NCBI GenBank assembly: GCA_030390025.1
Contig: JASTWF010000336.1
Coordinates: 372,001 to 436,000, forward strand
Direction of reading: 5' to 3'
Source: Squalus acanthias
Taxonomy: Eukaryota
Length of the DNA: 64,000 nucleotides
Positions within the stretch are counted from its first letter, which is position 1. Every line of letters starts with the position of its first letter. The position numbers and the translations under genes were made by a program. The notes under the pieces were generated by a model. The model had not been told where the DNA came from, made no database searches, and was given only the letters and a program-made list of their open reading frames with translations. Positions 33,841-63,722 of this stretch are shown here, in pieces.

Positions 33841-33958
33841 CCGAAAGCTTGTAATTTTAAATAAATCGGTTGGACTATAACCTGGTGTTCCTCTTTTTGG
33901 TTGGACAGAACCCAAATTAACTGTAAATCAATTAAAACTTTAAATGAAACTTAATAAA

Positions 33959-36900
33959 TCAAATTAAAATTTGGAAGTCCGGGGTGACGATGCACTCCAG
34001 TCCCCGCGGCGCCCACCGGTCGCGGAAAAACTCAAGCGTGCCGGTGGACACCGCGTGCTCCATCTCCAGGGCCACCCGGGCGCGAACATGGCCGCGGAAG
34101 AGAGGCAGGCAATCGGGCCGAACGACCCCCCCGACCGCCCGCTGCCTGGACCAATTAATGGCTTTCTTGGCCAGGCCCAGGAGCAGTCCTACGAGGAGGT
34201 CCTCCGACCTACCCGCTCCCCTCCGCACCGGGTGACCGTAGATCAGGAGCGTGGGGCTGAAGTGCAACCAGAAATTGAGGAGCAGCCCCTTCAAATAATG
34301 AAAGAGGGGCTGCAACCTCTCACATTCAACATAAATGTGATAGACGGACTCCTCCAGGCCGCAGAAATGGCAAGCAGCCTGGGAGTCCGTAAACCTACTT
34401 AAAATCCTATTGCACGGGACTGCTCCGTGCAACACCCTCCAGGCCAAGTCCCCAATAGAACAAGGGAAGACTCCCGCGTAGAGAGCCTTCCAATGGGGAC
34501 CTTCGCCTCCGCCGGACGGCAGGATGGTACGCCAAGGCGTGTCCGGACGGCAGACGAAGATGGCAAAGTGGAGAGTGTGCAGGAGCAGCCCGTACAGGAA
34601 ACGCCTCCGTGCGGATTGAAAGGGCACGGAGGGCATTTCTCCGAGAAGGCTCAAGTGGTGAGGCGGCGGCTCCCGAGGGAGGATTCGGGGCCGGGCGCCG
34701 ATAAGGAATTCCGTCCGAACGGGGGTCAGTTCGGACGGGATCGCCCCACGTGCTTGAGCCTCCTCGACACACCTAGTGGAGACGGGGCCCAGTGCCACTT
34801 TTAGCGACTCGATGGCTTTGACCGCGAGCCGGACGTTGACCCAGGACATGCGCCTCGCCAACTCCTCCGGCGCCATCCAGCCCGCTCCTCCGCCATCGAG
34901 CAGGTCCCCGACTCTGGTCACCTTACCGGGCACAGCCCTGCCCTCCGCCAGCCAGCCGAACCCGCGGTCGTGGAGGTGCGGATTCCTGAACAGCGGCTCC
35001 CGAAGGACGGCCGCCGCTCCTGACGGGGGAGAACTGCGCTCGGAGGCGACGCTGTTCCAAACCCATAGCAGTTCCTGGTAGAAGATAGGCAGCTCCCGCA
35101 GGCTGGCACGCGTGCCACCCACTCTCACAAACAGGAGCTGCGTGTCGTAATTGAGGCCGTGCAGCTGGCGGAAGAAATACGTCGCCAGCGCACGCCACCT
35201 AGGAGGATTCTCCACGTACAGGTATCTCTGCAGCGTCTGAAGACGGAAAGTCGCCGCCTGGGTGCGAAGGCACACCAGCGCCTGACCGCCCTCCCTAAGC
35301 AGGAGACTCAAAACCGCGGCAGAGACCCAGTGCTTCCTTTTGTCCCAGAAGAAGTCGACGAGATTCTTCTGCATCTTGGCGACAAACGCAGGGGGAGGGA
35401 TCAAAGTGATCAACCGGTACCACAACATGGCGGCCACCAGCTGGTTTATGACCAGCGCTCGACCCCTGTAGGACAACACTCGGAGCAGTCCTGTCCAGCG
35501 CCCTAGGCGAGCGGTGACTTTGGCCTCCAGCTCTTGCCACTTCGCCGGCCAGGCGTCCTCGGCCGGGCTGAGGTAGACTCCCAGGTAGAGGAGGTGCGTG
35601 GTGCTCCAGGCGAAAGGCCCGAACTCCTCCGGCAGGGAGTCCACCCGCCATGGGCCCACCAGGAGTCCAGAACATTTCTCCCAGTTGATCTTGGCGGAGG
35701 ATGCGTCCGAGTAAATCTGCTGGCATTCTCGCATCCTCCGCAAGTCGACGGGATCCGTGACCGCGAGGAGCACGTCATCGGCGTAAGCCGAGAGGACCAC
35801 CTCCACGCCCGGCCCTTGCAGAGCCAGTCCCGTCAACCTCTTCCGCAAGAGGCGCAGGAAAGGCTCCACGCAAACGGCGTATAACTGACCGCACATGGGG
35901 CATCCCTGACGCACCCCCCTCCCGAAGCGAAGGGGCGCCGTCAAAGACCCGTTAACTTTAATCAGACACTCCGCGGCGGCGTACAGAAGTCGGATCCGGG
36001 CGACGAAATGCGTCCCGAACCCGAATGCGCGCAGAGTCCCGAAAAGATACTCGTGATCCACCCTGTCGAACGCCTTCTCCTGATCTAGGGAAAGGAAGGC
36101 GACCGACAGACCAGCCCTCTGGGAATGGTGGACCAGGTCCCGGACCAGATGGATGTTGTCGTGGATTGTCCGGCCCGGGACCGTGTAGGACTGGTCGGGG
36201 TGGATCATGCGGGCCAGCACGGTGCCAAGGCGAGCAGACATAGCCCTGGCGAAAATTTTGTAGTCCGTGCTGAGGAGGGAGACCGGGCGCCAGTTCTTAA
36301 GTAGGCGGAGATCGCTCTTCTTGGGCAGCAGGACGATGACCGCCCTGCGCCAAGAGAGGGGCATCTCCCCGGTCGCCAGACTTTCCCCCAGGACCCGCGC
36401 GTAGTCGTCCCCCAAGACGTCCCAGAACGCCCTGTGGAACTCCACGGTCAGCCCGTCCAGCCCCGGGGACTTGCCCCTCGAGAGCTGGCGCAGGGCGCCG
36501 GTCAGCTCCGCCAGGCTTAGCGGAGCTTCTAAATACTCGGCGCCCTCCGGGCCGACCTTCGGCAGGTTCTCCCACAAAACTCTGCGTGCATCCTCGCTGG
36601 ACGGATCCGAAGAGAACAGAGCCCCGTAATAGGCCCGGGCCTCCGCGCTGATGCCCTCCGGATCCGAGACCAGAGATCCGTCGTCGGCCAGCAGCCCCAA
36701 GAGCTGCTTACGGACCCCCCGTCTTTTTTCCAGCGAGTAGAAGAAGGGGGAGCCGCGGTCCAGGTCCCACAGGAACTGGATCCGCGACCTCACGTACGCG
36801 CCTCGGGACCCGACCAGCTGCAGGTCCTGCAGCGCGCCCTTCTTCTCTTCGTACACCTTCCGCAGGGCCGGGTCCTCGACGACTTGACCGAGACTGGACT

Positions 36901-37858
36901 CCAGGTCGAGCACTTCTTTCTCCAATCGCCCGACCCGGGCCTCCCGCCTCTTGGTCGACCCCTTCGCGTACTCCTGACAGAAGACGCGGACGTGAGCCTT
37001 GCCCATGTCCCACCATAGCCTCAAGGAGGGGAAGCCTCCCCGCTTCCTTCTCCAGTCGGCCCAGAACCGGCGAAACGAATCCCGGAACCGCACGTCCTCC
37101 AGCAGCAGGTTGTTAAAATGCCAGTACGCGGACCCCCCCCGCGCGCGCAGCGGAGCGAGCTCCGCCCACACCAGGTGGTGGTCCGTGCACGGCACCGGCC
37201 GCATGGAAGCCGCCGGAACGCAGGAGACGTACGCCCGGGAAATGTAAAGGCGGTCGATTCTGGACCTTCCTCCTCCAGACCTTACGCTCGTGAAGGCGCT
37301 GGAGTCGGGATGGAGATATCGCCAGACGTCCACCAAGTCGAAGGACCCGACCAGGTCCCGCAACTTCTCCATCGCCGCCGGGCTTCGCGGGGGACCCGAC
37401 CGGTCCCGCGCCTCGAGGGTACAATTGAAATCCCCCCCGAGGATGACGCACTCGCCCACGTCGATGGAGCCCAGAAGAGCGGACACTTCTCCGAAGAAGC
37501 GCACTTGCTGCGCACCGGGCCGGGGGGCGTACACGTTCACTAAATGGAGCGGCACGCCTCCCAGGCGAACAGTGACCTGGAGCAAGCGGCCCGGCACGTG
37601 CTCCTTGACCCTCAAGATCTCCGGCTGAAAATGCGGGGCCAGCAAGACAGCCACCCCGCAGGAATTGTTAGAGAGGTGACTCATGCTGACCCCTCCTTGC
37701 CACTCCAGGAGCCACGTGGCCTCGTCTCCCGGAACGGTGTGGGTTTCTTGCAGGAAGCACACCGCATATTTCCCGTCCCGAAGGACCGAGAAGTTATTGA
37801 ATCTACGGCGCGCCTCCCTGCTGCCGTTGATGTTGAGGCTGGCTATGGTTATCTTCAT
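33959..37858 (-). CDS. Tx1 ORF2: APE endonuclease, reverse transcriptase, C-terminal zinc finger; intact
   Basis: ASLNING, LQETH, GGDFN, SRIDR, TDH; KNWRPVSL, DQEKAFD, RQGCP, YADD; CHFCGLEESVYHIYVEC. Confidence 0.96.
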   Translation of the reverse strand: MKITIASLNINGSREARRRFNNFSVLRDGKYAVCFLQETHTVPGDEATWLLEWQGGVSMSHLSNNSCGVAVLLAPHFQPEILRVKEHVPGRLLQVTVRLGGVPLHLVNVYAPRPGAQQVRFFGEVSALLGSIDVGECVILGGDFNCTLEARDRSGPPRSPAAMEKLRDLVGSFDLVDVWRYLHPDSSAFTSVRSGGGRSRIDRLYISRAYVSCVPAASMRPVPCTDHHLVWAELAPLRARGGSAYWHFNNLLLEDVRFRDSFRRFWADWRRKRGGFPSLRLWWDMGKAHVRVFCQEYAKGSTKRREARVGRLEKEVLDLESSLGQVVEDPALRKVYEEKKGALQDLQLVGSRGAYVRSRIQFLWDLDRGSPFFYSLEKRRGVRKQLLGLLADDGSLVSDPEGISAEARAYYGALFSSDPSSEDARRVLWENLPKVGPEGAEYLEAPLSLAELTGALRQLSRGKSPGLDGLTVEFHRAFWDVLGDDYARVLGESLATGEMPLSWRRAVIVLLPKKSDLRLLKNWRPVSLLSTDYKIFARAMSARLGTVLARMIHPDQSYTVPGRTIHDNIHLVRDLVHHSQRAGLSVAFLSLDQEKAFDRVDHEYLFGTLRAFGFGTHFVARIRLLYAAAECLIKVNGSLTAPLRFGRGVRQGCPMCGQLYAVCVEPFLRLLRKRLTGLALQGPGVEVVLSAYADDVLLAVTDPVDLRRMRECQQIYSDASSAKINWEKCSGLLVGPWRVDSLPEEFGPFAWSTTHLLYLGVYLSPAEDAWPAKWQELEAKVTARLGRWTGLLRVLSYRGRALVINQLVAAMLWYRLITLIPPPAFVAKMQKNLVDFFWDKRKHWVSAAVLSLLLREGGQALVCLRTQAATFRLQTLQRYLYVENPPRWRALATYFFRQLHGLNYDTQLLFVRVGGTRASLRELPIFYQELLWVWNSVASERSSPPSGAAAVLREPLFRNPHLHDRGFGWLAEGRAVPGKVTRVGDLLDGGGAGWMAPEELARRMSWVNVRLAVKAIESLKVALGPVSTRCVEEAQARGAIPSELTPVRTEFLIGARPRILPREPPPHHLSLLGEMPSVPFQSARRRFLYGLLLHTLHFAIFVCRPDTPWRTILPSGGGEGPHWKALYAGVFPCSIGDLAWRVLHGAVPCNRILSRFTDSQAACHFCGLEESVYHIYVECERLQPLFHYLKGLLLNFWLHFSPTLLIYGHPVRRGAGRSEDLLVGLLLGLAKKAINWSRQRAVGGVVRPDCLPLFRGHVRARVALEMEHAVSTGTLEFFRDRWAPRGLECIVTPDFQILI

Positions 37859-37883
37859 CTCAGAAGCATAGTGCAACCTCTAC

Positions 37884-40041
37884 CTAACGGAGGGGAGGGA
37901 GCGCGGTCACTGACGACCGCCACTCCCTCAGCAGCCCAGTGTGGAAACTCTTGAGCCGACGCAGCTCGAGCCGGCCAACGTCCTTGTCCGCGCCCATGAT
38001 TTTAACGGCGGCGCGGACGGACACGACGAGCAGCGCCAGCTCCGACCACTTGTCGAGGGCCAGCCGGATCTTCTTGTGACGACCCTGGCTCATGGCCATA
38101 AAATCCCAGAGTTCCCCTACGGGGATGAGGGGAGAGTCGGTGAAGGGCACAAGGGCGTCCATCACCTCGCTGCCGATGGACTCCAAATCGTCCTCGATGC
38201 CCACCACCGAGTCCCCGTCCTCCTCCGGGAGGTCGTCACCGGCGGCCGACCCGTCCGTCGCACGGGGTGCAGCGAAAGGCTCGGCCGCACCGGCCGGCCC
38301 CGCCTCCGTCACGATCCCACCCCCAGGATCGGCGGCAGAGGAGTCCACCCTGGGCTCCTTCAGGGGCGCCGGGCCGGGAGGCGGCGGCGGTTCGGGCCCC
38401 CCCCCCGCCTCAGGCGCCGGAGCGACCGGAGAAACCGGGGAGAAAATAATCTCAAATTCCTCCAGTACGTCCGGCGCCAACATCAGAGACGGAGTCAGGG
38501 GGCTTTCTGTCTCCCCGCCACCAACCTCCGACCCAGCGGACTGGGGATTGTTATACTCCTCCACCAGGTCGAGCAGTCCCTGGGAGATATCTGGATTGTA
38601 AAAGGCGGGCTCGGCTTCAGCCTCTTTGGCCTCGCCCGCCCCAGTCCCCAGGACGCCCGACCCGGCGAGGAGCAACGGTTCCGGAACTACATTTCCCTCC
38701 GCGGGTTGTTCCGCGCCCCCCCCCCCCCATGGGCAGGGTCTCTTCCCCATCCCCGGGAGGCACAGGTCGGACAGACTCGGCTGTCTCACCCTCCCGAGGG
38801 ACAGGCGACCCCCGCCGCTCGCGCGCGACGATGACGGTGGTGGGGTGGGGCGCAGCACCCGCGGCGGGCGACGACTCCCCTTCCGCGGAGGGACCTTCCT
38901 CCTCGCAGTCCTCCTCCTGGGGGTCGAGCTTCCTTTTTAACATATTGGGGCCCGGAGAGGGGGAGGCCTCCATGTCTGCTGGGGCCTCCCTCTCTGCCCC
39001 CTTCCGATGACTGGGTTTCTTGGGCCCCTCGGGCCCGAGCCCGGCCGCAGGTCTTGATTCAGCTGCCTCAGCAGTTGCGGTCACGGTCACGGGCCCGGGC
39101 ACGAGGACCCCCCCAGTCTCATGCGTCCCGACCAACTCCGCGATGTACTCGGGCGTGAGTTCGGTCAACTCGGATGTTTCCTCCGCGAGGGGATCCGCCC
39201 TTAGGTGTTTATTTTTCCTACGCGCCTTCCTTCCCCCCGGACGCTCTCCCTCCTCCCCGCCGGAGGCCGTGGTGGTGTTGGCCTCCGATTTCGACCGCGC
39301 ATCCGTCGCCGTCGACGCGCGGACAGTATCAGGGGGAGGGGGGGCGGCAGCGCCAACCCTGGCCGCGCCAGGTGTCGTGGCGGCCTTGGAGGCGGGGCAG
39401 TTTTTGCGGACGTGCCCCACCTCCTTACAGGCGTAGCACCGCACGCTGTCCGAGGTCCAGAAGACGCGGTGGGCGGTCCCCCCGTGGAGCACCGTGAACG
39501 CGCCATCCGCGTCCTCCTCCCGCGCCAGCCGGACGAAAAGCTGGCGCCGGAAGGAGAAGACGTGCCGAAGGCTGGCTTCCCGGAAGCCGAGCGGGATGGG
39601 TGTGATCCCCGACCTCACCTCCCCCAGTTGACGTAGGTGGGGGAGGAGGAGCTCACCCGGAACAAAGGGCGGGACGTTGGAAACCACAATCCTTTGCGCG
39701 GTGGCCTCAAGGGGGTCCACCGGCAGGAAGGTCCCGCCCACGGTGAGCCCCTTCTCGATGACCAGGGACACCGCCCGCTCCGTCCCCAGGAAGAACACAG
39801 CCTTGCCGTACATTTTAGAGGCGGCGACGATGGCTGAAGGGCCGACAACCCCAGCCATGGCTTTTACGCACGCCTCTATTGTCATATTGGGGTGAGTGCA
39901 GCTCTTGACCCCATTCTTCCTCGTAAGGAGGGTAAAAGGTGACGGGGTAACAGGAGGACTCGTGGCTGAGGCCGTGGCCGCGGCTGCCACGCTTGCGTAT
40001 GTCCTCGCTGCCCCCGCCACCGGCGAAGATGTAGTCGCCAT
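37884..40041 (-). CDS. Tx1 ORF1 (zinc knuckle), frameshifted in a C13 run at 38716-38728
   Basis: ORFs 38617-40071 and 37884-38858 join to match the intact ORF1 at 57507-59654; CYACKEVGHVRKNC. Confidence 0.9.
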
Positions 40042-41034
40042 GATGGGTTGGTCCTTAAGGGCTACACTCACCCCAAGTCACAGGCCTGAAGGTGTTAATG
40101 GCCTCTGGTTTTTTGTTTTTGTTTTCCCCTGAGCAGAGGGAGCTCTTAAATTGAAGGCACACCTCTCCCTTTGTATGAATTAATTAGGAGAGGGGCCTTC
40201 TCCCCTCTGCTCAATAGGTACTTAATTAAAAGATAATGAGGTGCCTCTTAGAGAGAGAGGCAGAGAGAGACAAGAGACAAAGAGAGAGAGAGAGGGGGTG
40301 GGAAGGAGGGAAGCCGCAAGGGCAGGGTCGCCACTCAGGATGGTGGGTGGGTGGGTGTTGGCAGGGGGGTGCACTCTCCGATGTAATAAAAGTCTTTGGT
40401 GGTGGTCTTCTGGTGGGGGGAGAAGATGTCTTCACCTGGGATAGCTGGAGATGCCCAGGCTCAGTCCTGCACCAGGTCTTAACGATGCCCAATAAGATTA
40501 AATTAATTGGGGACTTCACCTAGGCAGCTCCAGATGTCCCAGGCCAGGCAATGGGAAAGGGGTGTTTAATATGGTGTGTGCGGCCTAGCTTTTACAGAAG
40601 CCACACACACACACACACACACACACCCCTTGGATGTTCCGGCCCTCTTCTTTTTCTTCTTTCCTCCCCCCACCTACAAAACAAAGTCTCTGGGAGAGTG
40701 CACCAGAATCACACCCACCTGTAGATGATGTTCTTTCCTTCCTCCCTCCTTCCAAACAGTTGATGTTTGTTGTTGGTATGTTTTCTCCCCTCTCTCCCTC
40801 TCCTAAAATGGAGGCCAATTGAGGAGGCAGTGTGGAAAGACCTCTCCTCTGATGTTTGATGGCCTTGGCCTTCTTTTCTTTTCTTTCCTCTCTCCTCTCC
40901 TGTCCTCTCTCTCCAGGCACCTCAGTTGTGGATGTGTTGGTTGTTGGTGGTGGCCTGCTGTCTGGTCTCCTTCTCCTTCTCCTCTTCCTGCTCACAGAGA
41001 CCACTCTGCTGCTGCTGCTGCTCCTCCGTCAGCA

Positions 41035-41137
41035 GCTCCGAAAGCTTGTAAAATTAAATAAATCTGTTGGACTATAACCTGGTGTTGTGCGACTTCTCAT
41101 TTTTGTCCACCCCAGTCCAACACCGGCATCTCCACAT
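41035..41137 (+). mobile_element. 3' half of hammerhead repeat plus its tail (Penelope/retrozyme-like), Tx1-A target
   Basis: GCTCC-GAAA-GCTT-GTAA...TTGGACTATAACCTGGTGTTGTGCGACTTCTCA; same family as 48888-49009 and 63649-63722. Confidence 0.8.
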
Positions 41138-41189
41138 CATAAATAAAGCTGTAAGGCGAGAGATTCTCATTTAGCGACGATTTGAGTGA

Positions 41190-48887: not shown

Positions 48888-48896
48888 TATTTGAAA

Positions 48897-48938
48897 TCAC
48901 AAGCTTTCGGAGCTATCGATCGCCCCTTCCTCAGGTGA
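48897..48938 (-). ncRNA. Minimal type I hammerhead motif in a 96-bp tandem unit
   Basis: Minus strand TCAC-CTGAGGA-A-GGGGC-GATCGATA-GCTCC-GAAA-GCTT-GTGA. Confidence 0.8.
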
Positions 48939-49857
48939 AGTGAATGAGAAGTCGCACAACACCAGGTTATAGTCCAACAGTTTTATTTGAAATCACAAGC
49001 TTTCGGAGCTGCTGACGAAGGAGCAGCAGCAGCAGAGTGGTGGTCTCTGTGACCAGGAAGAGGAGAAGGAGAAGGAGACCAGACAGCAGACCACCACCAA
49101 CAACCACTACTGAGGTGCCTGGAGAGAGAGGACAGGAGAGGAGAGAGAAAAGAAGGGAAGGCCAAGGCCATTAACAACAGAGGGGAGGCCTTTCCATCAC
49201 TGCCTCCTCAATTGGCCTCCATTTTAGGAGAGGGAGAGAGGGGAGAAAACATCACAACATCCATCATCTGTTTGGAAGGAGGAAGGAAGGAAAGAACAGC
49301 TACAGGTGAATCTTTTATTCAAACCAATAATACAAATTACATAGTAAAACCATTACATTCATCCATCAAAATACAGTACAAATACCCCCAAACAATACCA
49401 CACTTTTTTTTTTATATTAAAATAATACATCTCACTTAACTCCACATAAAACAACCCATTTCAACACCACAGTGTACAAACACATAGCACCATCACAATC
49501 CAACTAAATGCCACATATAACATCCACTCCAATAACCCAAGAAACCTGTTCCGCGCCAGTCCCACTGGCACCGCCCACCCGACCATCCACTCAATTGTTC
49601 TCCGTGCTGGGCCTCCCGCCCAGGCCACTCTCCTCCGGGTCTTCCACCTTGGGCCTTCTGCACCGGACCCTCCGCACCGGCATTCCCCGCGAGCAGCCGG
49701 GGTGAATCAACTGCATCTCCCGACTCCACCTCTGCCGACCAGCCGCCCCGCCCTGGGCCCCCCGCCTGGGGTTCTCCGTGCTGGGCCTCCCGCCCAGGCC
49801 ACTCTCCTCCGGGTCTTCCACCTTGGGCCTTCTGCGAAGCGGACAACTTGGAGTGCA

Positions 49858-52800
49858 TTAAATTAAAATAACATTTCCCGGGGAAACGATGCACTCCAGT
49901 CCCTGCGGCGCCCACCGGTCTCGGAAGGCTTCAAGTGTGCCGGCGGACACCGCATGCTCCATCTCCAGGGCCACCCGGGCGCGAACATAGCCGCGGAAGA
50001 GAGGCAGGCAATTGGGCCGAACGACCCCCTCGACCGCCCGCTGCCTGGACCTGTTAATGGCCACTTTGGCCAGGCCCAGGAGCAGTCCTACGAGGAGGTC
50101 CTCCGACTTGCTCTCTCCCCTCCGCACCGGGTGACCGTAGATCAGGAGCGTGGGACTGAAGTGCAACCAAAAAGCGAGGAGCAGCCCCTTCAAATATTCA
50201 AAGAGGGGCTGCAACCTCTCACATTCCACATAAACGTGGAACACGGACTCCTCGAGGCCGCAAAAAAGACAGGCGGCCTGGGAGTCCGTGAACCTACTTA
50301 AAAACCGATTGCACGGGACTGCTCCGTGCAACACCCTCCAGGCCATGTCCCCAATAGAAAAGGGGAGTACTCCCGCATAGAGAGCCCTCCATTGGGGACC
50401 TTCGCCTCCGCCGGACGGCAAGATGGCACGCCAAGGCGTGTCCGGACGGCAGGCGAAGATGACAAAGTGGAAAGTGTGCAGGAGCAGCCCGTACAGGAAA
50501 CCCCTCCGTGCAGAACTGAAGGGCACAGAGGGCATTTCCCCGAGACGGCTCAAGTTGTGAGGCGCCGGTTCCCGAGAGGGGTTTCGGGGCCGTGCGCCGA
50601 TGAGGAATTCCGTCCGAACGGAGGTCAGTTCGGACGGGATCGCCCCACGTACTTGAGCCTCCTCGATACACCTAGTGGAGTCCGGGCCCAGTGCCACTTT
50701 CAGCAACTCGATGGCTTTGGCCGCGCGCCAGACGTCTGCCCAGGAGAGGCGCCGCGCCAACTCCTCTGGCGCCATCCAGCCCGCTCCTCCGCCATCGAGC
50801 AGGTCCCTGACTCTGGTCACCTTGCCTGGCACAGCCCTGCCCTCCGCCAGCCAGCCGATCCGTCGGACGTGGAGGTGCGGATTCCTGAACAGCGGCTCCC
50901 GAAGGAGAGCCGCCACTCCTGACGGGGGAGAACTCCGCCTGGAGGCGACCTGGTTCCAGACCCATAGCAGTTCCTGGTAAAAGACAGGCAGCTCCCACAG
51001 GTAGGCTCGCGTGCGGCCCAATTCCACAAACAGGAGCTGCGTGTCGTAGTTGAGGCCGTGCATCTGGCGGAAGAAATACGTCGCCAGCGCACACCATCTG
51101 GGAGGATTCTCGACGTAAAGGTACCTCTGCAGCGTCTGAAGACGGAAAGTCGCCGCCTGGGTGCGAAGGCACACCAGCGCCTGACCGCCCTCCCTAAGCG
51201 GGAGACACAGAACCGCGGCAGAGACCCAGTGCTTCCTTTTGTCCCAGAAGAAGTCGATGAGCATCTTCTGTATCTTGGCGACAAACGCAGGGGGAGGGAT
51301 CAAAGTGACCAACCGGTACCACAACATGGCGGCCACCAGCTGGTTTATGACGAGCGCTCGACCCCTGTAGGACAACACTCGGAGCAACCCCGTCCAGCGT
51401 CCTAGGCGAGCGGTGACCTTGGCCTCCAGCTCTTGCCAGTTCGCCGGCCAGGTGTCCTCGGCAGGGCTGAGGTAGACTCCCAAGTAGAGGAGGTGTGTTG
51501 TGCTCCAGGCGAAGGGCCTGAACTCCTCCGGCAGGGAGTCCACCTGCCACTGGCCCACCAGGAGTCCAGAACATTTCTCCCAGTTGATCCTGGCGGAGGA
51601 TGCGTCCGAGTAAATCTGCTGGCATTCTCGCATCCTCCGCAGGTCGACGGGATCCGTGACCATGAGGAGCACGTCATCGGCGTAAGCCGAGAGGACGACC
51701 TCCATGCCCGGCCCTTGCAGAGCCAGTCCCGTCAACCTCTTCCGCAAGAGGCGCAGGAAAGGCTCCACGCAAACGGCATATAACTGACCGGACATGGGGC
51801 ATCCCTGACGCACCCCCCCTCCCGAAGCGAAGGGGCGCCGTCAAAGACCCGTTAACTTTAATCAGACACTCCGCGGCGGCGTACAGAAGTCGGATCCGGG
51901 CGACGAAATGCGTCCCGAACCCGAATGCGCGCAGAGTCCCGAAGAGATACTCGTGATCCACCCTGTCGAACGCCTTCTCCTGATCCAGGGAAAGGAAGGC
52001 GACCGACAGACCAGTCCTCTGGGAAAGGTGGACCAGGTCCCGGACCAGATGGATGTTGTCGTGGATTGTCCGGCCCGGGACCGTGTAGGACTGGTCGGGG
52101 TGGATCATGTGGGCCAGCACGGTGCCGAGGCGGGCAGACATGGCCCTGGCAAAAATTTTATAGTCCGTGCTGAGGAGGGAGACCGGGCGCCAGTTTTTTA
52201 AAAGGCGGAGATCACCCCTCTTGGGCAGCAGGACGATAACCGCCCTGCGCCAAGAGAGGGGCATCTCCCCGGTCGCCAGACTTTCCCCCAGGACCCGCGC
52301 GTAGTCGCCCCCCAAGACGTCCCAGAACGCCCTGTGGAACTCCACGGTCAGCCCGTCCAGCCCCGGGGACTTTCCCCTCGAGAGCTGGCGCAGGGCGCCG
52401 GTCAGCTCCGCCAAACTTAGCGGAGCGTCCAATTCTTCGGCGCCCTCCGGGCCGACCTTCGGCAAGTCCTCCCACAAAACTCTGCGCGCATCCTCGCTGG
52501 ACGGATCCGGAGAGAACAGAGCCCCGTAATAGGCCCGGGTCCCCGCGCTGATCCCCTCCGGATCCGAGACCAGAGATCCGTCGTCGGCCAGCAGCCCCAA
52601 GAGCTGCTTACGGACCCCTCGTCTTTTTTCCAGCGAGTAGAAGAAGGGGGAGCCGCGGTCCAGGTCCCGCAGGAACTGGATTCGCGACCTCACGTACGCG
52701 CCTCGGGACCCGACCAGCTGCAGGTCCTTCAGCGCGCCCTTCTTCTCTTCGTACACCTTCCGCAGGGCCGGGTCTTCGACGACTTGACCGAGACGGGACT

Positions 52801-53758
52801 CCAGGTCGAGCACTTCTTTCTCCAATCGCCCGACCCGGGCCTCCCGCCTCTTGGTCGACCCCTTCGCGTACTCCTGACAGAAGAGACGGACGTGAGCCTT
52901 GCCCACGTCCCACCATAGCCTCAAGGAGGGGAAGCCCCCCTGCTTCCTTCTCCAGTCGGCCCAGAACCGGCGAAACGAATCCCGGAACCGCACGTCCTCC
53001 AGCAGCAGGTTGTTAAAATGCCAGTACGCGGACCCCCCCGGCGCCTGCAACGGAGCGAGCTCCGCCCACACCAGGTGGTGGTCCGTGCACGGCACCGGCC
53101 GCATGGAAGCCGCCGGAACGCAGGAGACGTACGCCCGGGAAATGTAAAGGCGGTCGATTCTGGACCTTCCTCCTCCAGACCCCACCCAAGTGAAGGCGCT
53201 GGAGTCGGGATGGAGATTTCGCCAGACGTCCACCAAGTCGAAGGACCCGACCAGGTCCCTCAACTTCACCGTCGCCGTCAGGCTTCGCGAAGGGCCCGAA
53301 CGGTCCCTCGCCTCGAGGGTACAATTAAAATCCCCCCCGAGGATGATGCACTCGCCGACGTCGACGGTGCCCAGAAGAGCGGACACTTCATCGAAGAAGC
53401 GCACTTGCTGCGCACCGGGCTGGGGGGCGTACACGTTCACTAAATGGAGCGGCACGCCCCCCAGACGAACAGTGACCTGGAGCAAGCGGCCCGGCACATG
53501 CTCCTTGACCCCCAAGATCTCCGGCTGAAAATGCGGGGCCAGCAAGATAGCCACCCCACCGGAAACGTTGGAGAGGTGACTCATGCTGACCCCTCCTCGC
53601 CACTCCAGGAGCCACGTGGCCTCGTCTCCCGGAACGGTGTGAGTTTCCTGCAGGAAGCACACCGCATGCCTCCCTTCCCGAAGGACCGAGAAGTTATTAA
53701 ATCTACGGCGTGCCTCTCTGCTGCCGTTGATGTTGAGGCTGGCTATGGTTATCTTCAT
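49858..53758 (-). CDS. Tx1-B ORF2 (EN-RT-zinc finger), one frameshift in a C run at 51813-51819
   Basis: ORFs 51674-53776 and 49858-51813 join; C7 here versus C6 in copy A1. Confidence 0.92.
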
Positions 53759-53789
53759 GACAAGAGCATAGTGCAACCTCTACCTTACT

Positions 53790-55877
53790 CTAACGGGAGG
53801 AGGGAGCGCGGCCGCTAGTCGACCGCCACTCCCTTCCAAGCCCAGCGAGGAAATTCTGGATCCGACGCCGCTCGGCCAGGCCCACGCCCCCGTCCGCGCC
53901 CATGGTTTTGACTGCGGCGCGGACGGAGCAAACGAGCAGCGCCAGATCCGACCATTTATCGATGGCCAGCCGGATTATATCCTGGCGACCCTGGCCCATG
54001 GCCACAAAGTCCCGGAGTTCCACAACGGGGATGAGGGGGGACCCGGAGGAGGGCACGAGGGCATCCGCCGCCTCACTGGCGACGGATTCCATATCATCCT
54101 CAGTGTCCTCCGCCGGGTCCCCGTCCTCCTCCGGGGGGTCGCCATCGGCCAGCCCTACCTCTGCCCCGATCCCACCCCCAGGATCGGCAGCAGAGGAGTC
54201 CTCCCTGGGCTCCTCCAGAGGCGCCGGGTCAGGAAGCGGCGGCGGCTCGGGGCCCCCCTCCGCCCCCGGCACCGGGGTGCACAGGGAAACCGGGGAGCAC
54301 ATTAGTGCCAGTTCCCTCAACAACCCCGGCGCCAGCGTCGCAGACGGAGTCAGGGGGCCTTCCCCTTCACCGCCACCATCCTCCGACCCAGCGGACCAGG
54401 TACCCTGGTTATATTGCTCAACCAGGTCGAGCAGTGCCTGGGAGTGGTCCTGACCGTACACGGCGGGCTCTGCCTCATCGGCCTCGCCCGCCCCGGTCCC
54501 CAGGATGCCCGACCTGGCGAGAAACAACGGATCAGCGTAACTCCCCACCGCGGGTAGTTCCGCGGCCCCCCCCATGAGCAGGGCCTCTCCCCCATCCCCG
54601 GGAGGCACAGGCTGGACAGACTCATCTGTCATGCCCTCCCGGGGGACAGGCGGCCCCTGCCGGATCTCGGTGATGGTGTCGGTGGGGGGGGGCGCAGCAC
54701 CCGCGGCGGGCAACGACTCCCCTTGCGAGGGGGGACCCCGTTCCTCACGGTCCTCCCCCTCATCCAGGATGTCGCGCCTCCTTTTCGAAGAGGAGGGACA
54801 CGAAGGTTGGGAGACCTCCATGCATACCGAGGCCTCCACCTCCGCTCCCCCCTGTCGATCGGTCTGCTCGGGGGTCCCGGGCCCGGTCACGGCCGCAGGT
54901 CTCGATTTTGCCGCCTTGGCGGATGCGGCCGCAGGCCCGGGCACAAGGTCCCTCGCATTCTCGAACTCCGCCGCCACCCGCGCAAGGTGTAGGGGCGTAA
55001 GCTCGGGTAAGTCATCATATATGTGAAGGGGACCCGCCTGAAGGTGTTTGCTTTTCCTCCGCGCCTTCCTTCCAGTCGGACGCTCCCCCTCCCCTTCGCC
55101 GGATGCCGCGACGGCGTTGACCTCCGGCGTCGACCGCGCATCGGGTGTCGCAGACGTGCGGACAGAAACAGGGGGAGGAGCGGCGGCGGCGCCAGCCTTG
55201 GCCGCCTCAGATGCTTTGGCGGCCTTGGAGGCGGGGCAGTTCTTTCTTATGTGCCCCACCTCCTTACAGGCATGGCACCGCACACCGTCCGACGTCCAGA
55301 AGACGCGGTAGGCGGTCCCCTCGTGTGTTATGCTAAATGCGCCTTCCGTGTCTTCCTCCCGCGCCAGCTGGATAAACAGCTGGCGCCGGAAGGAGAAGAC
55401 GTGCCGGAGGCTGGCCTCCCTGCAGCCGAGCGGGATCGGATTAATCCCCGACCTCACCTCCCCCAGTTGACGTAGGTGGGGGAGGAGGAGCTCAACCGGA
55501 ACAAATGGCGGGACATTCGATAGTATGAGTCGCTGCTCGGTGGCCTCGAGCGGATCCACCGGCAGGAAGGTCCCGCCCACGGTGAGCCCCTCGGTGACGG
55601 CCAGGGACACCGCCCGCTCCGACCGCAGGAAGAACACAGCCTTACCGTACATTTTAGAGGCCGCAACGATGGCTGAGGGGCCGACTACCCCAGCCATGGC
55701 TTTGACGCAAGCCTCTATGGTCATGTTGGGGTGAGTGTAGCTCTTCACCCCCAGCTTTTTTGTCAATAGCCTGAAAGGCGACGGGGCAGCAGAAGCAGCG
55801 GGACCAGCTGTGGCCGTGGCTGCCACACCCGCGTACGACCTTGCTTGCCCCGCCGCCGGCGAAGATGTGCTCGCCAT
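53790..55877 (-). CDS. Tx1-B ORF1, intact
   Basis: MASTSSPAAGQ...; CHACKEVGHIRKNC zinc knuckle. Confidence 0.9.
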   Translation of the reverse strand: MASTSSPAAGQARSYAGVAATATAGPAASAAPSPFRLLTKKLGVKSYTHPNMTIEACVKAMAGVVGPSAIVAASKMYGKAVFFLRSERAVSLAVTEGLTVGGTFLPVDPLEATEQRLILSNVPPFVPVELLLPHLRQLGEVRSGINPIPLGCREASLRHVFSFRRQLFIQLAREEDTEGAFSITHEGTAYRVFWTSDGVRCHACKEVGHIRKNCPASKAAKASEAAKAGAAAAPPPVSVRTSATPDARSTPEVNAVAASGEGEGERPTGRKARRKSKHLQAGPLHIYDDLPELTPLHLARVAAEFENARDLVPGPAAASAKAAKSRPAAVTGPGTPEQTDRQGGAEVEASVCMEVSQPSCPSSSKRRRDILDEGEDREERGPPSQGESLPAAGAAPPPTDTITEIRQGPPVPREGMTDESVQPVPPGDGGEALLMGGAAELPAVGSYADPLFLARSGILGTGAGEADEAEPAVYGQDHSQALLDLVEQYNQGTWSAGSEDGGGEGEGPLTPSATLAPGLLRELALMCSPVSLCTPVPGAEGGPEPPPLPDPAPLEEPREDSSAADPGGGIGAEVGLADGDPPEEDGDPAEDTEDDMESVASEAADALVPSSGSPLIPVVELRDFVAMGQGRQDIIRLAIDKWSDLALLVCSVRAAVKTMGADGGVGLAERRRIQNFLAGLGREWRSTSGRAPSSR

Positions 55878-57506
55878 ACTGAGGTGGTATAAAGGGCTAC
55901 ACCCACCCCAAGTCACAGGCCGGGTGATGTTTAAGTGGCCTTGGGTTTTTTTTGTCTTTTCCCCCGAGCAGAGGGGGTTGTTTTGAGAAAAAGAAGGCAC
56001 ACCTCTCCCTTTTATGATTGGAATTGGGAGTGGCCTTCTCCCCTCTGCTCAATTGGGTAATAAATAAGGTTTGAGGTGCCTCATTAGAGAGAGGCAGAGA
56101 GAGAGAGAGAGAGAGAGGGGGTGGGAAGGAGGAAAGGGGGAAGGCCGCACGGGCCTATTCGCCACTCAGGATAGTGGGTGGGTGGGTGCCTCCTTGGGGG
56201 GGGGGGGGCACTCTTCGATGATAAATAAAGTCTTTGTTGATGTTCTTCTGGTGGGGGGAGAAGATGTCTTCACCTGGGAAAAAATAAAGCTGGAGATGCC
56301 CAGGCTCAGTCTACAACCAGGTCTTAACAATGTTCTAAAATGTGAAGCAATAGGCAAGGGGTGCTTGTTGATGGTGTGTGTGGCCAAGTTGTTAGCAAGA
56401 GCCACACACACTCACACACACCCCTTGCTATCCTGGTCTTCTCCTTCTTCTTTCCTCCCCCCACCTCAAATACAAAGTCTTTTGGAGAGTGCCCTTTTTA
56501 ACACCCACCTCTCGATGTTGTTTTCCTTCTCGAAGGCTCGCTCTCCCTCCTTCCAAGCAGATGTTGGTCTTGTTCTCCCCTCTCTCCCTCTCTCGTAATG
56601 GAGACCAGTTGGGGAGGCAGTGATGGAAAGGCTTCCCTCTGTTGCTGTTGCTGGTCTCCTCTCTCTCCTCTCCTCTCTCACCTCAGCAGCAGTCGTGGTT
56701 GTAGCTGTAGCTGCAGGCGTGGTGGAGGTGGAAAAGGTCTCCACTCTGTCCTTCGTGGCTCCTTCTCCTTCTAGGCACAGAGAAAAGAGACCTCTCCTTT
56801 CCCCTCCTCTTCTCAGCAAACGGCGCTCACCCGTTCACGCAGCACCGTGTTGAGCTGAGTCCCTCGCAGCCTCAGCCTCTGCCTCCGTCTCCGTCTGTCC
56901 TCGCCTGGGACCGCACTCGGTGTGTGTGTGTGTGTGTGTGGCTTCTGTAAAAGCTAGGCCGCACACACCATATTAAACATCCCTTTCCCATTGCCTGACC
57001 TGGGACAGCTGGAGCTGCCTAGGTGAAGTCCCCAATTCAAACAACATCTAATTGGGCATCGTTAAGACCTGGTGCAGGACTGAGCCTGGGCATCTCCAGC
57101 TATCCCAGGTGAAGACATCTTCTCCCCCCACCAGAAGACCACCACCAAAGACTTTTATTACATCGGAGAGTGCACCCCCCCTGCCAACACCCACCCACCC
57201 ACCATCCTGAGTGGCGACCCTGCCCTTGCGGCTTCCCTCCTTCCCACCCCCCCTCTCTCTCTCTCTCTTTGTCTCTTGTCTCTCTCTGCCTCTCTCTCTA
57301 AGAGGCACCTCAATCTATTTTTATTAAGTACCTATTGAGCAGAGGGGAGAAGGTCCCTCTCCCAATTCAATCAACTAAAGGGAGAGGTGTGCCTTCAATT
57401 TAAGAGCTCCCTCTGCTCAGGGGAAAACAGAAACAAAAAACCGAGGCCATTAACACCTTCAGGCCTGTGACTTGGGGTGAGTGTAGCCCTTAAGGACCAA
57501 CCCATC

Positions 57507-59654
57507 ATGGCGACCACATCTTCGCCGGTGGCGGGGGCAGCGAGGACATACGCAAGCGTGGCAGCCGCGGCCACGGCCGCAGCCACGAGTCCTCCTGTTA
57601 CCCCGTCACCTTTTACCCTCCTTACGAGGAAGAATGGGGTCAAGAGCTACACTCACCCCAATATGACAATAGAGGCGTGCGTAAAAGCCATGGCTGGGGT
57701 TGTCGGCCCTTCAGCCATCGTCGCCGCCTCTAAAATGTACGGCAAGGCTGTGTTCTTCCTGGGGTCGGAGCGGGCGGTGTCCCTGGCCATCGAGAAGGGG
57801 CTCACCGTGGGCGGGACCTTCCTGCCGGTGGACCCCCTTGAGGCCACCGCGCAAAGGATTGTGGTTTCCAACGTCCCGCCCTTTGTTCCGGGTGAGCTCC
57901 TCCTCCCCCACCTACGTCAACTGGGGGAGGTGAGGTCGGGGATCACACCCATCCCGCTCGGCTTCCGGGAAGCCAGCCTTCGGCACGTCTTCTCCTTCCG
58001 GCGCCAGCTTTTCGTCCGGTTGGCGCGGGAGGAGGACGCGGATGGCGCGTTCACGGTGCTCCACGGGGGGACCGCCCACCGCGTCTTCTGGACCTCGGAC
58101 GGCGTGCGGTGCTACGCCTGTAAGGAGGTGGGGCACGTCCGCAAAAACTGCCCCGCCTCCAAGGCCGCCACGACACCTGGCGCGGCCAGGGTTGGCGCCG
58201 CCGCCCCCCCTCCCCCTGATACTGTCCGCGCGTCGACGGCGACGGATGCGCGGTCGAAATCGGAGGCCAACACCACCACGGCCTCCGGCGGGGGGGAGGG
58301 AGAGCGTCCGGGGGGAAGGAAGGCGCGTAGGAAAAATAAACACCTAAGGGCGGATCCCCTCGTGGAGGAAACATCCGAGTTGACCGAACTCACGCCCGAG
58401 TACATCGCGGAGTTGATCGGGACGCATGAGACTGGGGGGGTCCTCGTGCCCGGGCCCGTGACCGCAACTGCTGAGGCAGCTAAATCAAGACCTGCGGCCG
58501 GGCTCGGGCCCGAGGGGCCCAAGAAACCCAGTCGTCGGAAGGGGGCAGAGAGGGAGGCCCCAGCAGACATGGAGGCCTCCCCCTCTCCGGGCCCCAATAT
58601 GTTAAAAAGAAAGCTAGACCCCCAGGAGGAGGACTTCGAGGAGGAAGGTCCCTCCGCAGAAGGGGAGTCGTCGCCCGCCACGGGTGCTGCGCCCCACCCC
58701 ACCACCGTCATTGTCGCACGCGATCGGCAGGGGTCGTCTGTCCCTCGGGAGGGTGAGACAGCCGAGTCTGTCCGACCTGTGCCTCCCGGGGATGGGGAAG
58801 AGACCCTGCCCGTGGGGGGGGGCGCGGAACAACCCGCGGAGGGAAATGTAGTTCCGGAACCGTTGCTCCTCGCCGGGTCGGGCGTCCTGGGGACTGGGGC
58901 GGGCGAGGCCAAAGAGGCTGAAGCCGAGCCCGCCTTTTATAACCCAGATATCTCCCAGGGACTGCTCGACCTGGTGGAGGAGTGTAACAATCCCCAGCCC
59001 GCTGGGTCGGAGGTTGGTGGCGGGGAGACAGAAAGCCCCCTGACTCCGTCTCTGATGTTGGCGCCGGACGTACTGGAGGAATTTGAGATTATTTTCTCCC
59101 CGGTTTCTCCGGTCGCTCCGGCGCCTGAGGCGAGGGGGGGCCCCGAACCGCCGCCGCCTCCCGGCCCGGCGCCCCTGAAGGAGCCCAGGGTGGACTCCTC
59201 TGCCACCGATCCTGGGGGTGGGATCGTGACGGAGGCGGGGCCGGCCGGTGCGGCCGAGCCGTTCGCTGCACCCCGTGTGACGGACGGGTTGGCCGCCGGT
59301 GACGACCTCCCGGAGGAGGACGGGGACTCGGTGTTGGGCACCGAGGACGATTTGGAGTCCATCAGCAGCGAGGCGATGGACGCCCTCGTGCCCTTCACCG
59401 ACTCTCCCCTCATCCCCGTAGGGGAACTCCGGGATTTTATGGCCGTGAGCCAGGGTCGTCACAAGAAGATCCGGTTGGCCCTCGACAAGTGGTCGGAGCT
59501 GGCGCTGCTCGTCGTGTCCGTCCGCGCCGCTGTTAAAATCATGGGCGCGGACAAGGACGTTGGCCGGCTCGAGCTGCGTCGGCTCAAGAGTTTCCACACT
59601 GGGCTGCTGAGGGAGTGGCGGTCGTCGGTGACCGCGCTCCCTCCCCTCCGTTAG
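57507..59654 (+). CDS. Tx1-A ORF1, intact
   Basis: MATTSSPVAG...; CYACKEVGHVRKNC. Confidence 0.92.
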   Translation: MATTSSPVAGAARTYASVAAAATAAATSPPVTPSPFTLLTRKNGVKSYTHPNMTIEACVKAMAGVVGPSAIVAASKMYGKAVFFLGSERAVSLAIEKGLTVGGTFLPVDPLEATAQRIVVSNVPPFVPGELLLPHLRQLGEVRSGITPIPLGFREASLRHVFSFRRQLFVRLAREEDADGAFTVLHGGTAHRVFWTSDGVRCYACKEVGHVRKNCPASKAATTPGAARVGAAAPPPPDTVRASTATDARSKSEANTTTASGGGEGERPGGRKARRKNKHLRADPLVEETSELTELTPEYIAELIGTHETGGVLVPGPVTATAEAAKSRPAAGLGPEGPKKPSRRKGAEREAPADMEASPSPGPNMLKRKLDPQEEDFEEEGPSAEGESSPATGAAPHPTTVIVARDRQGSSVPREGETAESVRPVPPGDGEETLPVGGGAEQPAEGNVVPEPLLLAGSGVLGTGAGEAKEAEAEPAFYNPDISQGLLDLVEECNNPQPAGSEVGGGETESPLTPSLMLAPDVLEEFEIIFSPVSPVAPAPEARGGPEPPPPPGPAPLKEPRVDSSATDPGGGIVTEAGPAGAAEPFAAPRVTDGLAAGDDLPEEDGDSVLGTEDDLESISSEAMDALVPFTDSPLIPVGELRDFMAVSQGRHKKIRLALDKWSELALLVVSVRAAVKIMGADKDVGRLELRRLKSFHTGLLREWRSSVTALPPLR

Positions 59655-59679
59655 GTAGAGGTTGCACTATGCTTCTGAG

Positions 59680-62600
59680 ATGAAGATAACCATAGCCAGC
59701 CTCAACATCAACGGCAGCAGGGAGGCGCGCCGTAGATTCAATAACTTCTCGGTCCTTCGGGACGGGAAATATGCGGTGTGCTTCCTGCAAGAAACCCACA
59801 CCGTTCCGGGAGACGAGGCCACGTGGCTCCTGGAGTGGCAAGGAGGGGTCAGCATGAGTCACCTCTCCAACAATTCCTGCGGGGTGGCTGTCTTGCTGGC
59901 CCCGCATTTTCAGCCGGAGATCTTGAGGGTCAAGGAGCATGTGCCGGGCCGCTTGCTCCAGGTCACTGTTCGCCTGGGAGGCGTGCCGCTCCATTTAGTG
60001 AACATGTACGCCCCCCGGACCGGTGCGCAGCAAGTCCGCTTCTTCGGAGAAGTGTCCGCTCTTCTGGGCTCCATCGACGTGGGCGAGTGCGTCATCCTCA
60101 GGGGGGATTTCAATTGTACCCTCGAGGCGCGGGACCGGTCGGGTCCCCCGCGAAGCCCGGCGGCGATGGAGAAGTTGCGGGACCTGGTCGGGTCCTTCGA
60201 CTTGGTGGACGTCTGGCGAAATCTCCATCCCGACTCCAGCGCCTTCACGAGCGTGAGGTCTGGAGGAGGAAGGTCCAGAATCGACCGCCTTTACATTTCC
60301 CGGGCGTACGTCTCCTGCGTTCCGGCGGCTTCCATGCGGCCGGTGCCGTGCACGGACCACCACCTGGTGTGGGCGGAGCTCGCTCCGCTGCGCGCGCGGG
60401 GGGGGGTCCGCGTACTGGCATTTTAACAACCTGCTGCTGGAGGACGCGCGGTTCCGGGATTCGTTTCGCCGATTCTGGGCCGACTGGAGAAGGAAGCGGG
60501 GAGGCTTCCCCTCCTTGAGGCTATGGTGGGACGTGGGCAAGGCTCACGTCCGCGTCTTCTGTCAGGAGTACGCGAAGGGGTCGACCAAGAGGCGGGAGGC
60601 CCGGGTCGGGCGATTGGAGAAAGAAGTGCTCGACCTGGAGTCCCGTCTCGGTCAGGTCGTCGAGGACCCGGCCCTGCGGAAGGTGTACGAAGAGAAGAAG
60701 GGCGCGCTGAAGGACCTGCAGCTGGTCGGGTCCCGAGGCGCGTACGTGAGGTCGCGGATCCAGTTCCTGCGGGACCTGGACCGCGGCTCCCCCTTCTTCT
60801 ACTCGCTGGAAAAAAGACGGGGGGTCCGTAAGCAGCTCTTGGGGCTGCTGGCCGACGACGGATCTCTGGTCTCGGATCCGGAGGGCATCAGCGCGGAGGC
60901 CCGGGCCTATTACGGGGCTCTGTTCTCTTCGGATCCGTCCAGCGAGGATGCGCGCAGAGTTTTGTGGGAGGACCTGCCGAAGGTCGGCCCGGAGGGCGCC
61001 GAGAATTTAGAAGCTCCGCTAAGCCTGGCGGAGCTGACCGGCGCCCTGCGCCAGCTCTCGAGGGGCAAGTCCCCGGGGCTGGACGGGCTGACCGTGGAGT
61101 TCCACAGGGCGTTCTGGGACGTCTTGGGGGACGACTACACGCGGGTCCTGGGGGAAAGTCTGGCGACCGGGGAGATGCCCCTCTCTTGGCGCAGGGCGGT
61201 CATCGTCCTGCTGCCCAAGAAGGGCGATCTCCGCCTAATTAAGAACTGGCGCCCGGTCTCCCTCCTCAGCACGGACTACAAAATTTTCGCCAGGGCTATG
61301 TCTGCTCGCCTTGGCACCGTGCTGGCCCGCATGATCCACCCCGACCAGTCCTACACGGTCCCGGGCCGGAGCATCCACGATAACATCCCTCTGGTCCGGG
61401 ACCTGGTCCACCATTCCCAGAGGGCTGGTCTGTCGGTCGCCTTCCTTTCCCTGGATCAGGAGAAGGCGTTCGACAGGGTGGATCACGAGTATCTTTTCGG
61501 GACTCTGCGCGCATTCGGGTTCGGGACGCATTTCGTCGCCCGGATCCGACTTCTGTACGCCGCCGCGGAGTGTCTCATTAAAGTTAACGGGTCTTTGACG
61601 GCGCCCCTTCGCTTCGGGAGGGGGGTGCGTCAGGGATGCCCCATGTCCTGTCAGTTATACGCCGTTTGCGTGGAGCCTTTCCTGCGCCTCTTGCGGAAGA
61701 GGTTGACGGGACTGGCTCTGCAAGGGCCGGGCGTGGAGGTGGTCCTCTCGGCGTACGCCGATGACGTGCTCCTCGCGGTCACGGATCCCGTCGACTTGCG
61801 GAGGATGCGAGAATGCCAGCAGATTTACTCGGACGCATCCTCCGCCAAGATCAACTGGGAGAAATGTTCTGGACTCCTGGTGGGCCCATGGCGGGTGGAC
61901 TCCCTGCCGGAGGAGTTCGGGCCTTTCGCCTGGAGCACCACGCACCTCCTCTACCTGGGAGTCTACCTCAGCCCGGCCGAGGACGCCTGGCCGGCGAACT
62001 GGCAAGAGCTGGAGGCCAAAGTCACCGCTCGCCTAGGACGCTGGACAGGACTGCTCCGAGTGTTGTCCTACAGGGGTCGAGCGCTGGTCATAAACCAGCT
62101 GGTGGCCGCCATGTTGTGGTACCGGTTGATCACTTTGATCCCTCCCCCTGCGTTTGTCGCCAAGATGCAGAAGAAGCTCGTCGACTTCTTCTGGGACAAA
62201 AGGAAGCACTGGGTCTCTGCCGCGGTTTTGAGTCTCCCGCTTAGGGAGGGCGGTCAGGCGCTGGTGTGCCTTCGCACCCAGGCGGCGACTTTCCGTCTTC
62301 AGACGCTGCAGAGATACCTGTACGTGGAGAATCCTCCTAGGTGGCGTGCGCTGGCGACGTATTTCTTCCGCCAGCTGCACGGCCTCAATTACGACACGCA
62401 GCTCCTGTTTGTGAGAGTGGGTGGCACGCGTGCCAGCCTGCGGGAGCTGCCTGTCTTCTACCAGGAACTGCTATGGGTTTGGAACAGCGTCGCCTCCGAG
62501 CGCAGTTCTCCCCCGTCAGGAGCGGCGGCCGTCCTTCGGGAGCCGCTGTTCAGGAATCCGCACCTCCACGACCGCGGGTTCGGCTGGCTGGCGGAGGGCA

Positions 62601-63580: not shown

Positions 63581-63683
63581 TTTGTTAAGTTTCATTTAAA
63601 GTTTTAATTGATTTACAGTAAATTTGTGTTTGTCCAACCAAAAAGAGCAACACCAGGTTATAGTCCAACAGATTTATTTAATT

Positions 63684-63722
63684 TTACAAGCTTTCGAAGC
63701 AGTTCGCTCCTTCGTCACGTAA
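63684..63722 (-). ncRNA. Hammerhead motif variant (core C3 changed to G)
   Basis: Minus strand TTAC-GTGACGA-A-GGAGC-GAACT-GCTTC-GAAA-GCTT-GTAA. Confidence 0.65.

Follow-up and report, generated by a model that had tools for sequence, protein, structure and literature searches.

The apparent tandem of hammerhead ribozyme (HHR) units at 48.9 kb of the 64-kb window (the whole stretch of Squalus acanthias DNA that was analysed, 64,000 nucleotides) is probably composed of decayed ends of Penelope-like elements (PLEs) that were split by a PLE-targeting LINE of the Tx1 clade, whose leader supplies the "second unit". The sequence TATTTGAAATCACAAGCTTTCGGAGCT recurs exactly at 48888 and 48984, and no exact repeat there is longer than 27 bp (period 96). 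The first-pass annotation had described this arrangement as a tandem of 96-bp units, but when the two copies are aligned in register, just 14 of the 69 positions beyond these 27 bp agree, and Tandem Repeats Finder has no entry at 48.9–49.0 kb among its 38 rows for the window. The second hammerhead is incomplete: 48984-49010 carries GCUCC-GAAA-GCUU-GUGA, without a CUGANGA upstream on that strand. It is best read as one half of an HHR that adjoins the 5' end of a Tx1 LINE. With good confidence in this explanation as a whole, the 27-bp repeat corresponds to the 3' half of the HHR, contributed first by a resident PLE copy and again by the Tx1 leader. The locus is made up of the following features.

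48888..48942, minus strand: PLE-type pseudo-LTR piece carrying the hammerhead H1, cut off within AATAAA and fused to a histone H3 pseudogene at about codon 3
48897..48938, minus strand: H1, complete minimal type I HHR (descriptor scan, folding and sequence)
48943..48971, minus strand: pseudo-LTR 3' end, short form without tail, abutting H1 at ATT and including the 15-bp Tx1 target (48957-48971)
48972..49010, plus strand: 39 bp of PLE-antisense sequence ahead of the Tx1 5' end of segment D (the "second unit"); the minus strand holds the HHR 3' half and AATAAA
49011..49308, plus strand: segment D, Tx1 5' UTR, 94.6% identical to that of element A (280 of 296 aligned positions)
49012..49027, plus strand: CTGACGAAGGAGCAGC, flipped HHR 5' half, the perfect reverse complement of the next 16 nt in the intact repeat
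49311..56919, minus strand: element B, a second Tx1-clade LINE, antisense inside the 5' UTR between D and C, with a frameshifted ORF2 and a different, long 3' UTR
56920..63647, plus strand: segment C, Tx1 body, with a CCHC knuckle in ORF1 and an APE+RT ORF2 broken into two frames
63648..63731, minus strand: remainder of the target repeat with the HHR copy C3 (stem I UUAC/GUAA, core GUGACGA, stem II GGAGC/GCUUC)

All hammerhead parts named in the first-pass annotation (stem I, core, stem II, GAAA and the palindromic AAGCUU) were found on the minus strand at 48897-48938. Stem I of H1 pairs UCAC (48938-48935) with GUGA (48900-48897); the core CUGAGGA (48934-48928) is followed by one unpaired A, stem II (GGGGC/GCUCC) has the loop GAUCGAUA and is followed by GAAA and GCUU, and cleavage is predicted 3' of 48901, after CUU. 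U at position 17 gives the weakest NUH triplet. A minimal-HHR descriptor built for this analysis produced three matches in the window (H1 and an inverted pair at 28870 minus and 29220 plus) and none in 100 block-wise dinucleotide shuffles, which indicates that the H1 motif did not arise by chance. A motif search had been proposed as a check; the custom descriptor detected H1, whereas no hammerhead family was among the 14 Rfam matches in the window at E <= 1, and the HHR identification thus rests on the descriptor. H1 combines CUGANGA, the unpaired base, a stem II with G10.1-C11.1, GAAA, a palindromic NUH and stem I, as minimal type I PLE-HHRs do, and this combination is lacking in the 63.7-kb copy (C3G) and in three half copies. 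H1 is a real hammerhead, although neither this type of ribozyme nor the type of element that probably carries it is new, and its earlier interpretation as a minimal dimer-type hammerhead of retroelement origin, with a predicted cut after CUU, was right. Loop II of H1 is longer than the family consensus, and contigs carry 4-nt deletions relative to H1 at 48915/48916; the predicted minimum free energy (MFE) homodimer of H1 would pair via the stem and the self-complementary loop II, not via AAGCUU.

Minimal HHRs occur in the pLTRs of metazoan PLEs (Cervera and De la Pena, 2014; PMC4209133), and for these metazoan motifs no cleavage as monomers and weak cleavage as dimers is described (PMC4209133). 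H1 shares with them the 4-bp helix I, the unpaired nucleotide before helix II, the G10.1-C11.1 pair and the palindromic positions 15.2-16.2, and the PLE motifs likewise are mostly single and dispersed, stemming from truncated elements (PMC4209133). Differences are seen in helix II, which has 5 bp in H1 compared to 7–8 bp in the Schistosoma set, and in the lack of a linked ORF at the squalid locus; sharks are not named in the part of that publication that was available (PMC4209133).

The window holds five copies of the HHR repeat, of which H1 is intact, C3 at 63.7 kb is a core mutant and three are half copies (33.8, 41.0 and 49.0 kb). The stem I covariation previously reported for the 63.7-kb copy is real in so far as UUAC/GUAA represents one compensatory pair (C-G to U-A; two complete copies compared, with zero stem I variants listed in the contig tables), but the core there reads GUGACGA, a C3G mutation at position 63718 that had been overlooked. 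H1 and C3 are 82% identical, a divergence that fits, as expected, two separate PLE copies and not a recently amplified unit.

Contigs from four public runs (4 of 24 listed runs, among which X19-X24 have a small or zero share; X9 is possibly RNA) were aligned to 48840-49440, with contig detail for the best 32 of 18,508 pieces and the best 24 of 349 loose-end rows. Summed contig depth in run X1, which is not a copy number, amounts to 5–6 million over 48945-48986; within the Tx1 5' UTR it is about 13–25 thousand in four bins at 49176-49259 and up to 0.5 million in the other bins. The repeat at 48945-48986 is very abundant and dispersed, with an optional 39-nt tail. Among the loose-end rows listed, ends at 49008-49014 continue in all four runs into CTCCTTCGTC(A/G)GGTGAA, which is the 5' half of an intact HHR with the CUGACGA core and the UCAC of stem I. 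At 48943-48945, 53–111 contigs per place depart with long low-agreement ends in X1 and X2 (the two large DNA runs), and the loose ends at these positions run into the tail or varied DNA and not back into a hammerhead (four runs; 24 of 349 rows). The junction between the H3 pseudogene and the pseudo-LTR is known from the window alone; contig depth is 0 at 48840-48881, which may reflect filtering. One 21-mer of the repeat, matched exactly, was absent from the metagenome, viral and prokaryote collections alike (0 loci each).

A further insertion of the repeat, together with the full-length Tx1 copy from which the identities of D and C are counted, is located upstream in the window.

33828..33890, plus strand: 5'-truncated HHR-half repeat downstream of element A, with one copy of a 13-bp duplication at its end
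33891..41033, minus strand: element A, full-length Tx1, with an ORF2 of 1306 aa (APE, RT, zf-RVT) and a CCHC in ORF1, its two junctions matching those of D and C
41034..41150, plus strand: leader/target upstream of A, pseudo-LTR end, 39-nt tail and second copy of the 13-bp duplication

Here a whole 5'-truncated copy of the repeat sits in an H4 promoter, flanked by 13-bp duplications of the promoter sequence AGCTTTATTTATG (33828-33840 and 41138-41150). An HHR-bearing end repeat, 5' truncation and partial tandems are marks of PLEs (PMC8557442), which may also carry an optional tail of 30–40 bp (PMC11167929, PMC8557442); all of these were found for the squalid repeat, and the 39-nt tail at locus A (41102-41140) lies within the described size range. 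The repeat is likely the short pseudo-LTR (~96 bp) of a very abundant PLE. No PLE ORF (RT + GIY-YIG) of the HHR-repeat family was found in the 64-kb window, and the assignment to the PLEs thus rests on HHR type, tail and layout. The Poseidon PLE PAc of Anolis offers a close parallel (Frangieh et al., 2024; PMC11167929): it resembles the locus in having two 3' ends that are one 30–40-nt tail apart and a partial tandem joined at ATT, but its ORF starts inside the HHR, whereas the squalid repeat has no ORF beside it in the window. In PAc, C3G abolishes HHR cleavage and the HHR needs the PLE protein, and the PLE endonuclease prefers ATT in its own pseudo-LTR (PMC11167929). By analogy, this preference may be what placed the joint between the short 3' end and H1 at ATT.

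The repeat could also be a non-autonomous, SINE-like HHR element that exists as dispersed monomers and has no living PLE partner of the same sequence. An ORF is absent beside all five window copies, and at locus A the repeat forms a short insertion with its own duplication, as such an element would. The same picture is, however, produced by 5' truncation of PLEs (PMC8557442), and upstream of C3 the sequence continues for at least 270 bp, where two short frames have no Pfam match. A SINE-like nature appears very improbable, and the pseudo-LTR of a PLE is retained as the likely identity of the repeat.

The hallmarks of the Tx1 clade (CCHC in ORF1; APE, RT and zf in ORF2; Tx1 as nearest named relative) are present in A, B and C/D taken as a group; no CCHC match was obtained for ORF1 of B. 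Residues 1-300 of the ORF2 product of A are 46% identical to the Xenopus Tx1 149-kDa protein, and among named proteins one from Heterodontus is the best relative of the LINE endonuclease (76%), which indicates a cartilaginous fish. The 3' ends of A and C both read AAAAAGAG and are positioned at the same base of the repeat (2/2 in the window). Correspondingly, the 5' ends of A and D both follow the same 54-nt stretch of the repeat (2/2; A boundary 41034/41033) and begin with GCTGACG(A/G)AGGAGCAGC. The leader and its boundary with the Tx1 5' end are spanned by a contig of run X9 (record 30, 48957-49048). An X9 contig runs through the target to 48971, continues with 36 letters that resemble the Tx1 3' end, and re-enters the target from 48957; this joint is a short insertion with a 15-bp duplication at the Tx1 site. 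The data on target specificity thus comprise two of two 3' ends and two of two 5' ends in the window plus one contig joint, all at the same site; for comparison, Kojima (2015; PMC4494074) regards a family as target-specific if >20% of its flanks share one site. Segment C is 97.0–99.6% identical to A in 500-bp blocks, and the similarity of A and C is 98% when 53 bp of flank are counted in; they could share a recent duplication, in which case their 3' junctions would not be independent.

The same stretch of 53–54 bp flanks both ends of A and of D..C, and 27 bp of it are identical to the neighbouring H1, so that the half-HHR at 49.0 kb might be regarded as part of a long target-site duplication of ~54 bp or as a local PLE remnant truncated by Tx1. 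Yet the 5' and 3' 54-mers differ by four mismatches in A and seven in D/C although the elements are young, and 10 of these 11 mismatches lie beyond the 15-mer; moreover, the X9 contig displays a duplication of 15 bp, and the 27-bp identity would be expected anyway because the contigs list no other letters at those positions. A long duplication or local remnant is therefore considered unlikely, and the 39 bp beyond the 15-mer are read here as a putative target-derived leader carried by the Tx1 RNA. The flipped 16 nt that follow were identified against the loose-end consensus at 49009 in X1 and X2 and are complementary to the bases just past the target stretch. A ribozyme in the Tx1 sense strand was also considered and rejected: CUGACGA is present, but there is no CUGANGA..GAAA on that strand at 49.0 kb, and folding yields only a GCUGCU/AGCAGC hairpin.

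Segments D and C are in register around element B, except for about 95 bp of A that are missing there, and we rather favour their origin from one insertion. This confidence is tempered by the lower similarity of D to A (94.6%, vs. 97–99.6% for C): D and C may instead be two fused insertions, in which case the assumption of a single event would be wrong. If they do form one insertion, C3 and H1 formerly lay next to each other at a distance of 96 nt, which would account for the link that the first-pass annotation drew to 63.7 kb. The 96-nt spacing obtained without the Tx1 block follows from the length of the leader, however, and is not independent evidence.

Element B differs from A by an ORF2 that is 86–93% similar and by its long 3' UTR, which ends with AATAAAAGATT; CACC adjoins both ends of the element. 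Among the pieces listed for X1 and X2, contigs have one B-type 3' end, truncated, sitting directly on another at GGTG (49413 to 49305); this second Tx1 family may therefore recognise a target word of its own. A remnant 80% similar to the 3' UTR of B lies at 10602-10844, cut at 10602 by the end of a CR1-type LINE, and a fragment 83% similar to the Tx1 5' UTR is found at 4583-4800 (minus strand), about 400 bp upstream of an intact H3 gene.

Based on these junctions, a history of three steps is proposed. First, a PLE copy would have been ended by target-primed reverse transcription at ATT just upstream of the HHR of another copy, giving an ordinary partial tandem. Second, the Tx1 endonuclease would have cut one fixed pseudo-LTR site (CAACACCAGGTTATA, ~15-bp duplication); the inserted Tx1 would have displaced the upstream HHR to 63.7 kb and brought along a 5' leader composed of PLE-antisense sequence with the HHR 3' half and the flipped 5' half. 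Third, a member of the second Tx1 family would have entered the 5' UTR of the first. According to the literature, cleavage of precursor RNA by the HHR of intact PLEs would be weak and would proceed through a dimer or with the help of protein. In minus-strand RNA of the present locus, the upstream AGCU and GUGA could pair with H1 and permit a single cut in cis at 48997, although the corresponding one-cut fold is predicted to lie 6.2 kcal/mol above the MFE, with a stem I pair probability of 0.014. The present allele is thus predicted to be cuttable at most once in cis, and since the core for a second cut is absent, no 96-nt monomer or circle would be expected in cis.

The first-pass annotation had taken the locus for a 96-bp non-autonomous tandem retrozyme, whose dimeric hammerheads would release ~96-nt linear or circular RNAs. 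Besides the reality of the minimal HHR and the 96-nt spacing of the cut sites (48997 and 48901), this interpretation can draw on the reported size of retrozyme units, which derive from PLE pLTRs and have lengths of 51–972 bp, with a mean of 98 bp in the only sarcopterygian sampled (Li et al., 2026; bioRxiv 10.64898/2026.07.22.740005). Type I HHR, lack of a protein, pLTR origin and a unit length within this range are shared between the locus and the non-LTR retrozymes (PMC7229834; Li et al., 2026). Furthermore, the X2 loose-end consensus at 49009 ends with ...GGTGAAGTGAGAAGT, which suggests another head-to-tail joint and that short pseudo-LTR tandems may recur elsewhere, and, should D and C stem from a single insertion, two whole HHRs would have stood 96 nt from each other at the empty site. 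These HHRs are, however, the different variants described above, one of them with C3G, and a crossed stem I would hold a C-A mismatch; the locus now contains just one complete unit, an intact HHR is found in only one of the five window copies of the repeat, and the listed contigs at the spacer end enter the tail or varied DNA. The working definition of an active non-LTR retrozyme is two consecutive units with complete HHRs (bioRxiv 10.64898/2026.07.22.740005); the locus differs in having no such pair and, by prediction, one cut at most, and the metazoan retrozymes demonstrated experimentally have ~170–400 nt with canonical HHRs (PMC7229834). A 96-nt retrozyme would rank among the smallest retroelements with a ribozyme, but a stand-alone element that yields ~96-nt circles is not supported by the data, and we regard it as very unlikely. 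Since retrozymes derive from PLE pLTRs with units from 51 bp, the line between a partial tandem, as preferred here, and a nascent retrozyme is nevertheless thin.

PLE minimal HHRs, retrozymes and transposon-targeting Tx1 families have all been published already. Among the latter, Tx1L targets Tx1D, Tx1-Mar targets Mariner-N4_AMi and Tx1-9_AMi targets Harbinger, whereas Tx1-8_Crp and Tx1-4_AMi target LTR elements (Kojima, 2015; PMC4494074). The family of A and C agrees with these in its clade and in its fixed site within another mobile element, and target-derived 5' extensions are described in the same source for SINEU-2B (PMC4494074). It differs in that the target is a probable PLE pseudo-LTR adjacent to a hammerhead, and in its putative leader with a flipped ribozyme half; the word "Penelope" occurs 0 times in PMC4494074. 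No Tx1 family that targets a PLE end repeat was found in the literature searched, and Repbase may already hold both families.

The targeting and leader of this Tx1 family are more interesting than the hammerhead at the locus. A young Tx1 LINE (copy A, with an intact ORF2 of 1306 aa) appears to insert at a single base of a PLE end repeat and seems to carry target-derived 5' sequence, which adds a target class to the known habit of Tx1, and the APE endonuclease of element A could serve studies of specificity as a natural enzyme with a candidate site of 15 bp. The observations are also a warning that "tandem hammerheads" in such genomes can arise from the leader of an insertion. A more far-reaching possibility, which we regard as speculative and improbable when all its parts are taken jointly, is that the Tx1 family is a parasite of a parasite with its target built in: its RNA would start with PLE-antisense sequence and a disarmed, flipped hammerhead half, the leader would pair with the cut target and guide 5' joining or the second nick, and the opposite strand would retain the GAAAGCUU-GUGA half, with which PLE hammerheads nearby could form dimers. 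If the leader does pair in this manner, targeting by this APE-type LINE would be RNA-assisted and directed at a ribozyme.

The window as a whole represents a vertebrate histone cluster crowded with LINEs. Rfam gave nine Histone3 stem-loop matches, eight of them at or above the gathering score, and Pfam identified H2A and H4-type histone folds. An intact H3 gene is located at 3.8–4.2 kb, and the H3 copy at 48.5–48.9 kb has no start and is frameshifted; 44758-48877 and 1-4166 form a 4.2-kb histone-cluster duplication (94%). At locus A, the HHR repeat and Tx1 A separate the H4 gene by 7.3 kb from most of its promoter, with the insertion situated within CATAAATAAAGCT, which we take to be TATA-like.

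A second, different minimal hammerhead (CUGACGA...GAAACGUU) occurs twice in the long inverted arms at 28780-29330 (cores at 28870 minus and 29221 plus), which resemble an inverted 5'-truncated PLE arrangement; Rfam labels these arms as MIR2118 below the gathering score, which is a mislabel. A CUGAUGA...GAAAC-like string at 7854 (minus strand), upstream of an H1 histone gene, failed the stem I test of the descriptor and probably occurs by chance. About 11 kb at 17245-28600 consist of a 41/46-bp minisatellite interleaved with pieces of CR1-type LINEs. The 410-aa open frame at 32262-33494 (minus strand) has a weak RT match (E 0.0017) and presumably corresponds to the C-terminal part of an RTE-type LINE. 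Finally, a tRNA gene lies inside the histone cluster at 43049-43120 (plus strand); its anticodon loop reads CCA in the alignment, and its body is presumably that of a tRNA-Gly.
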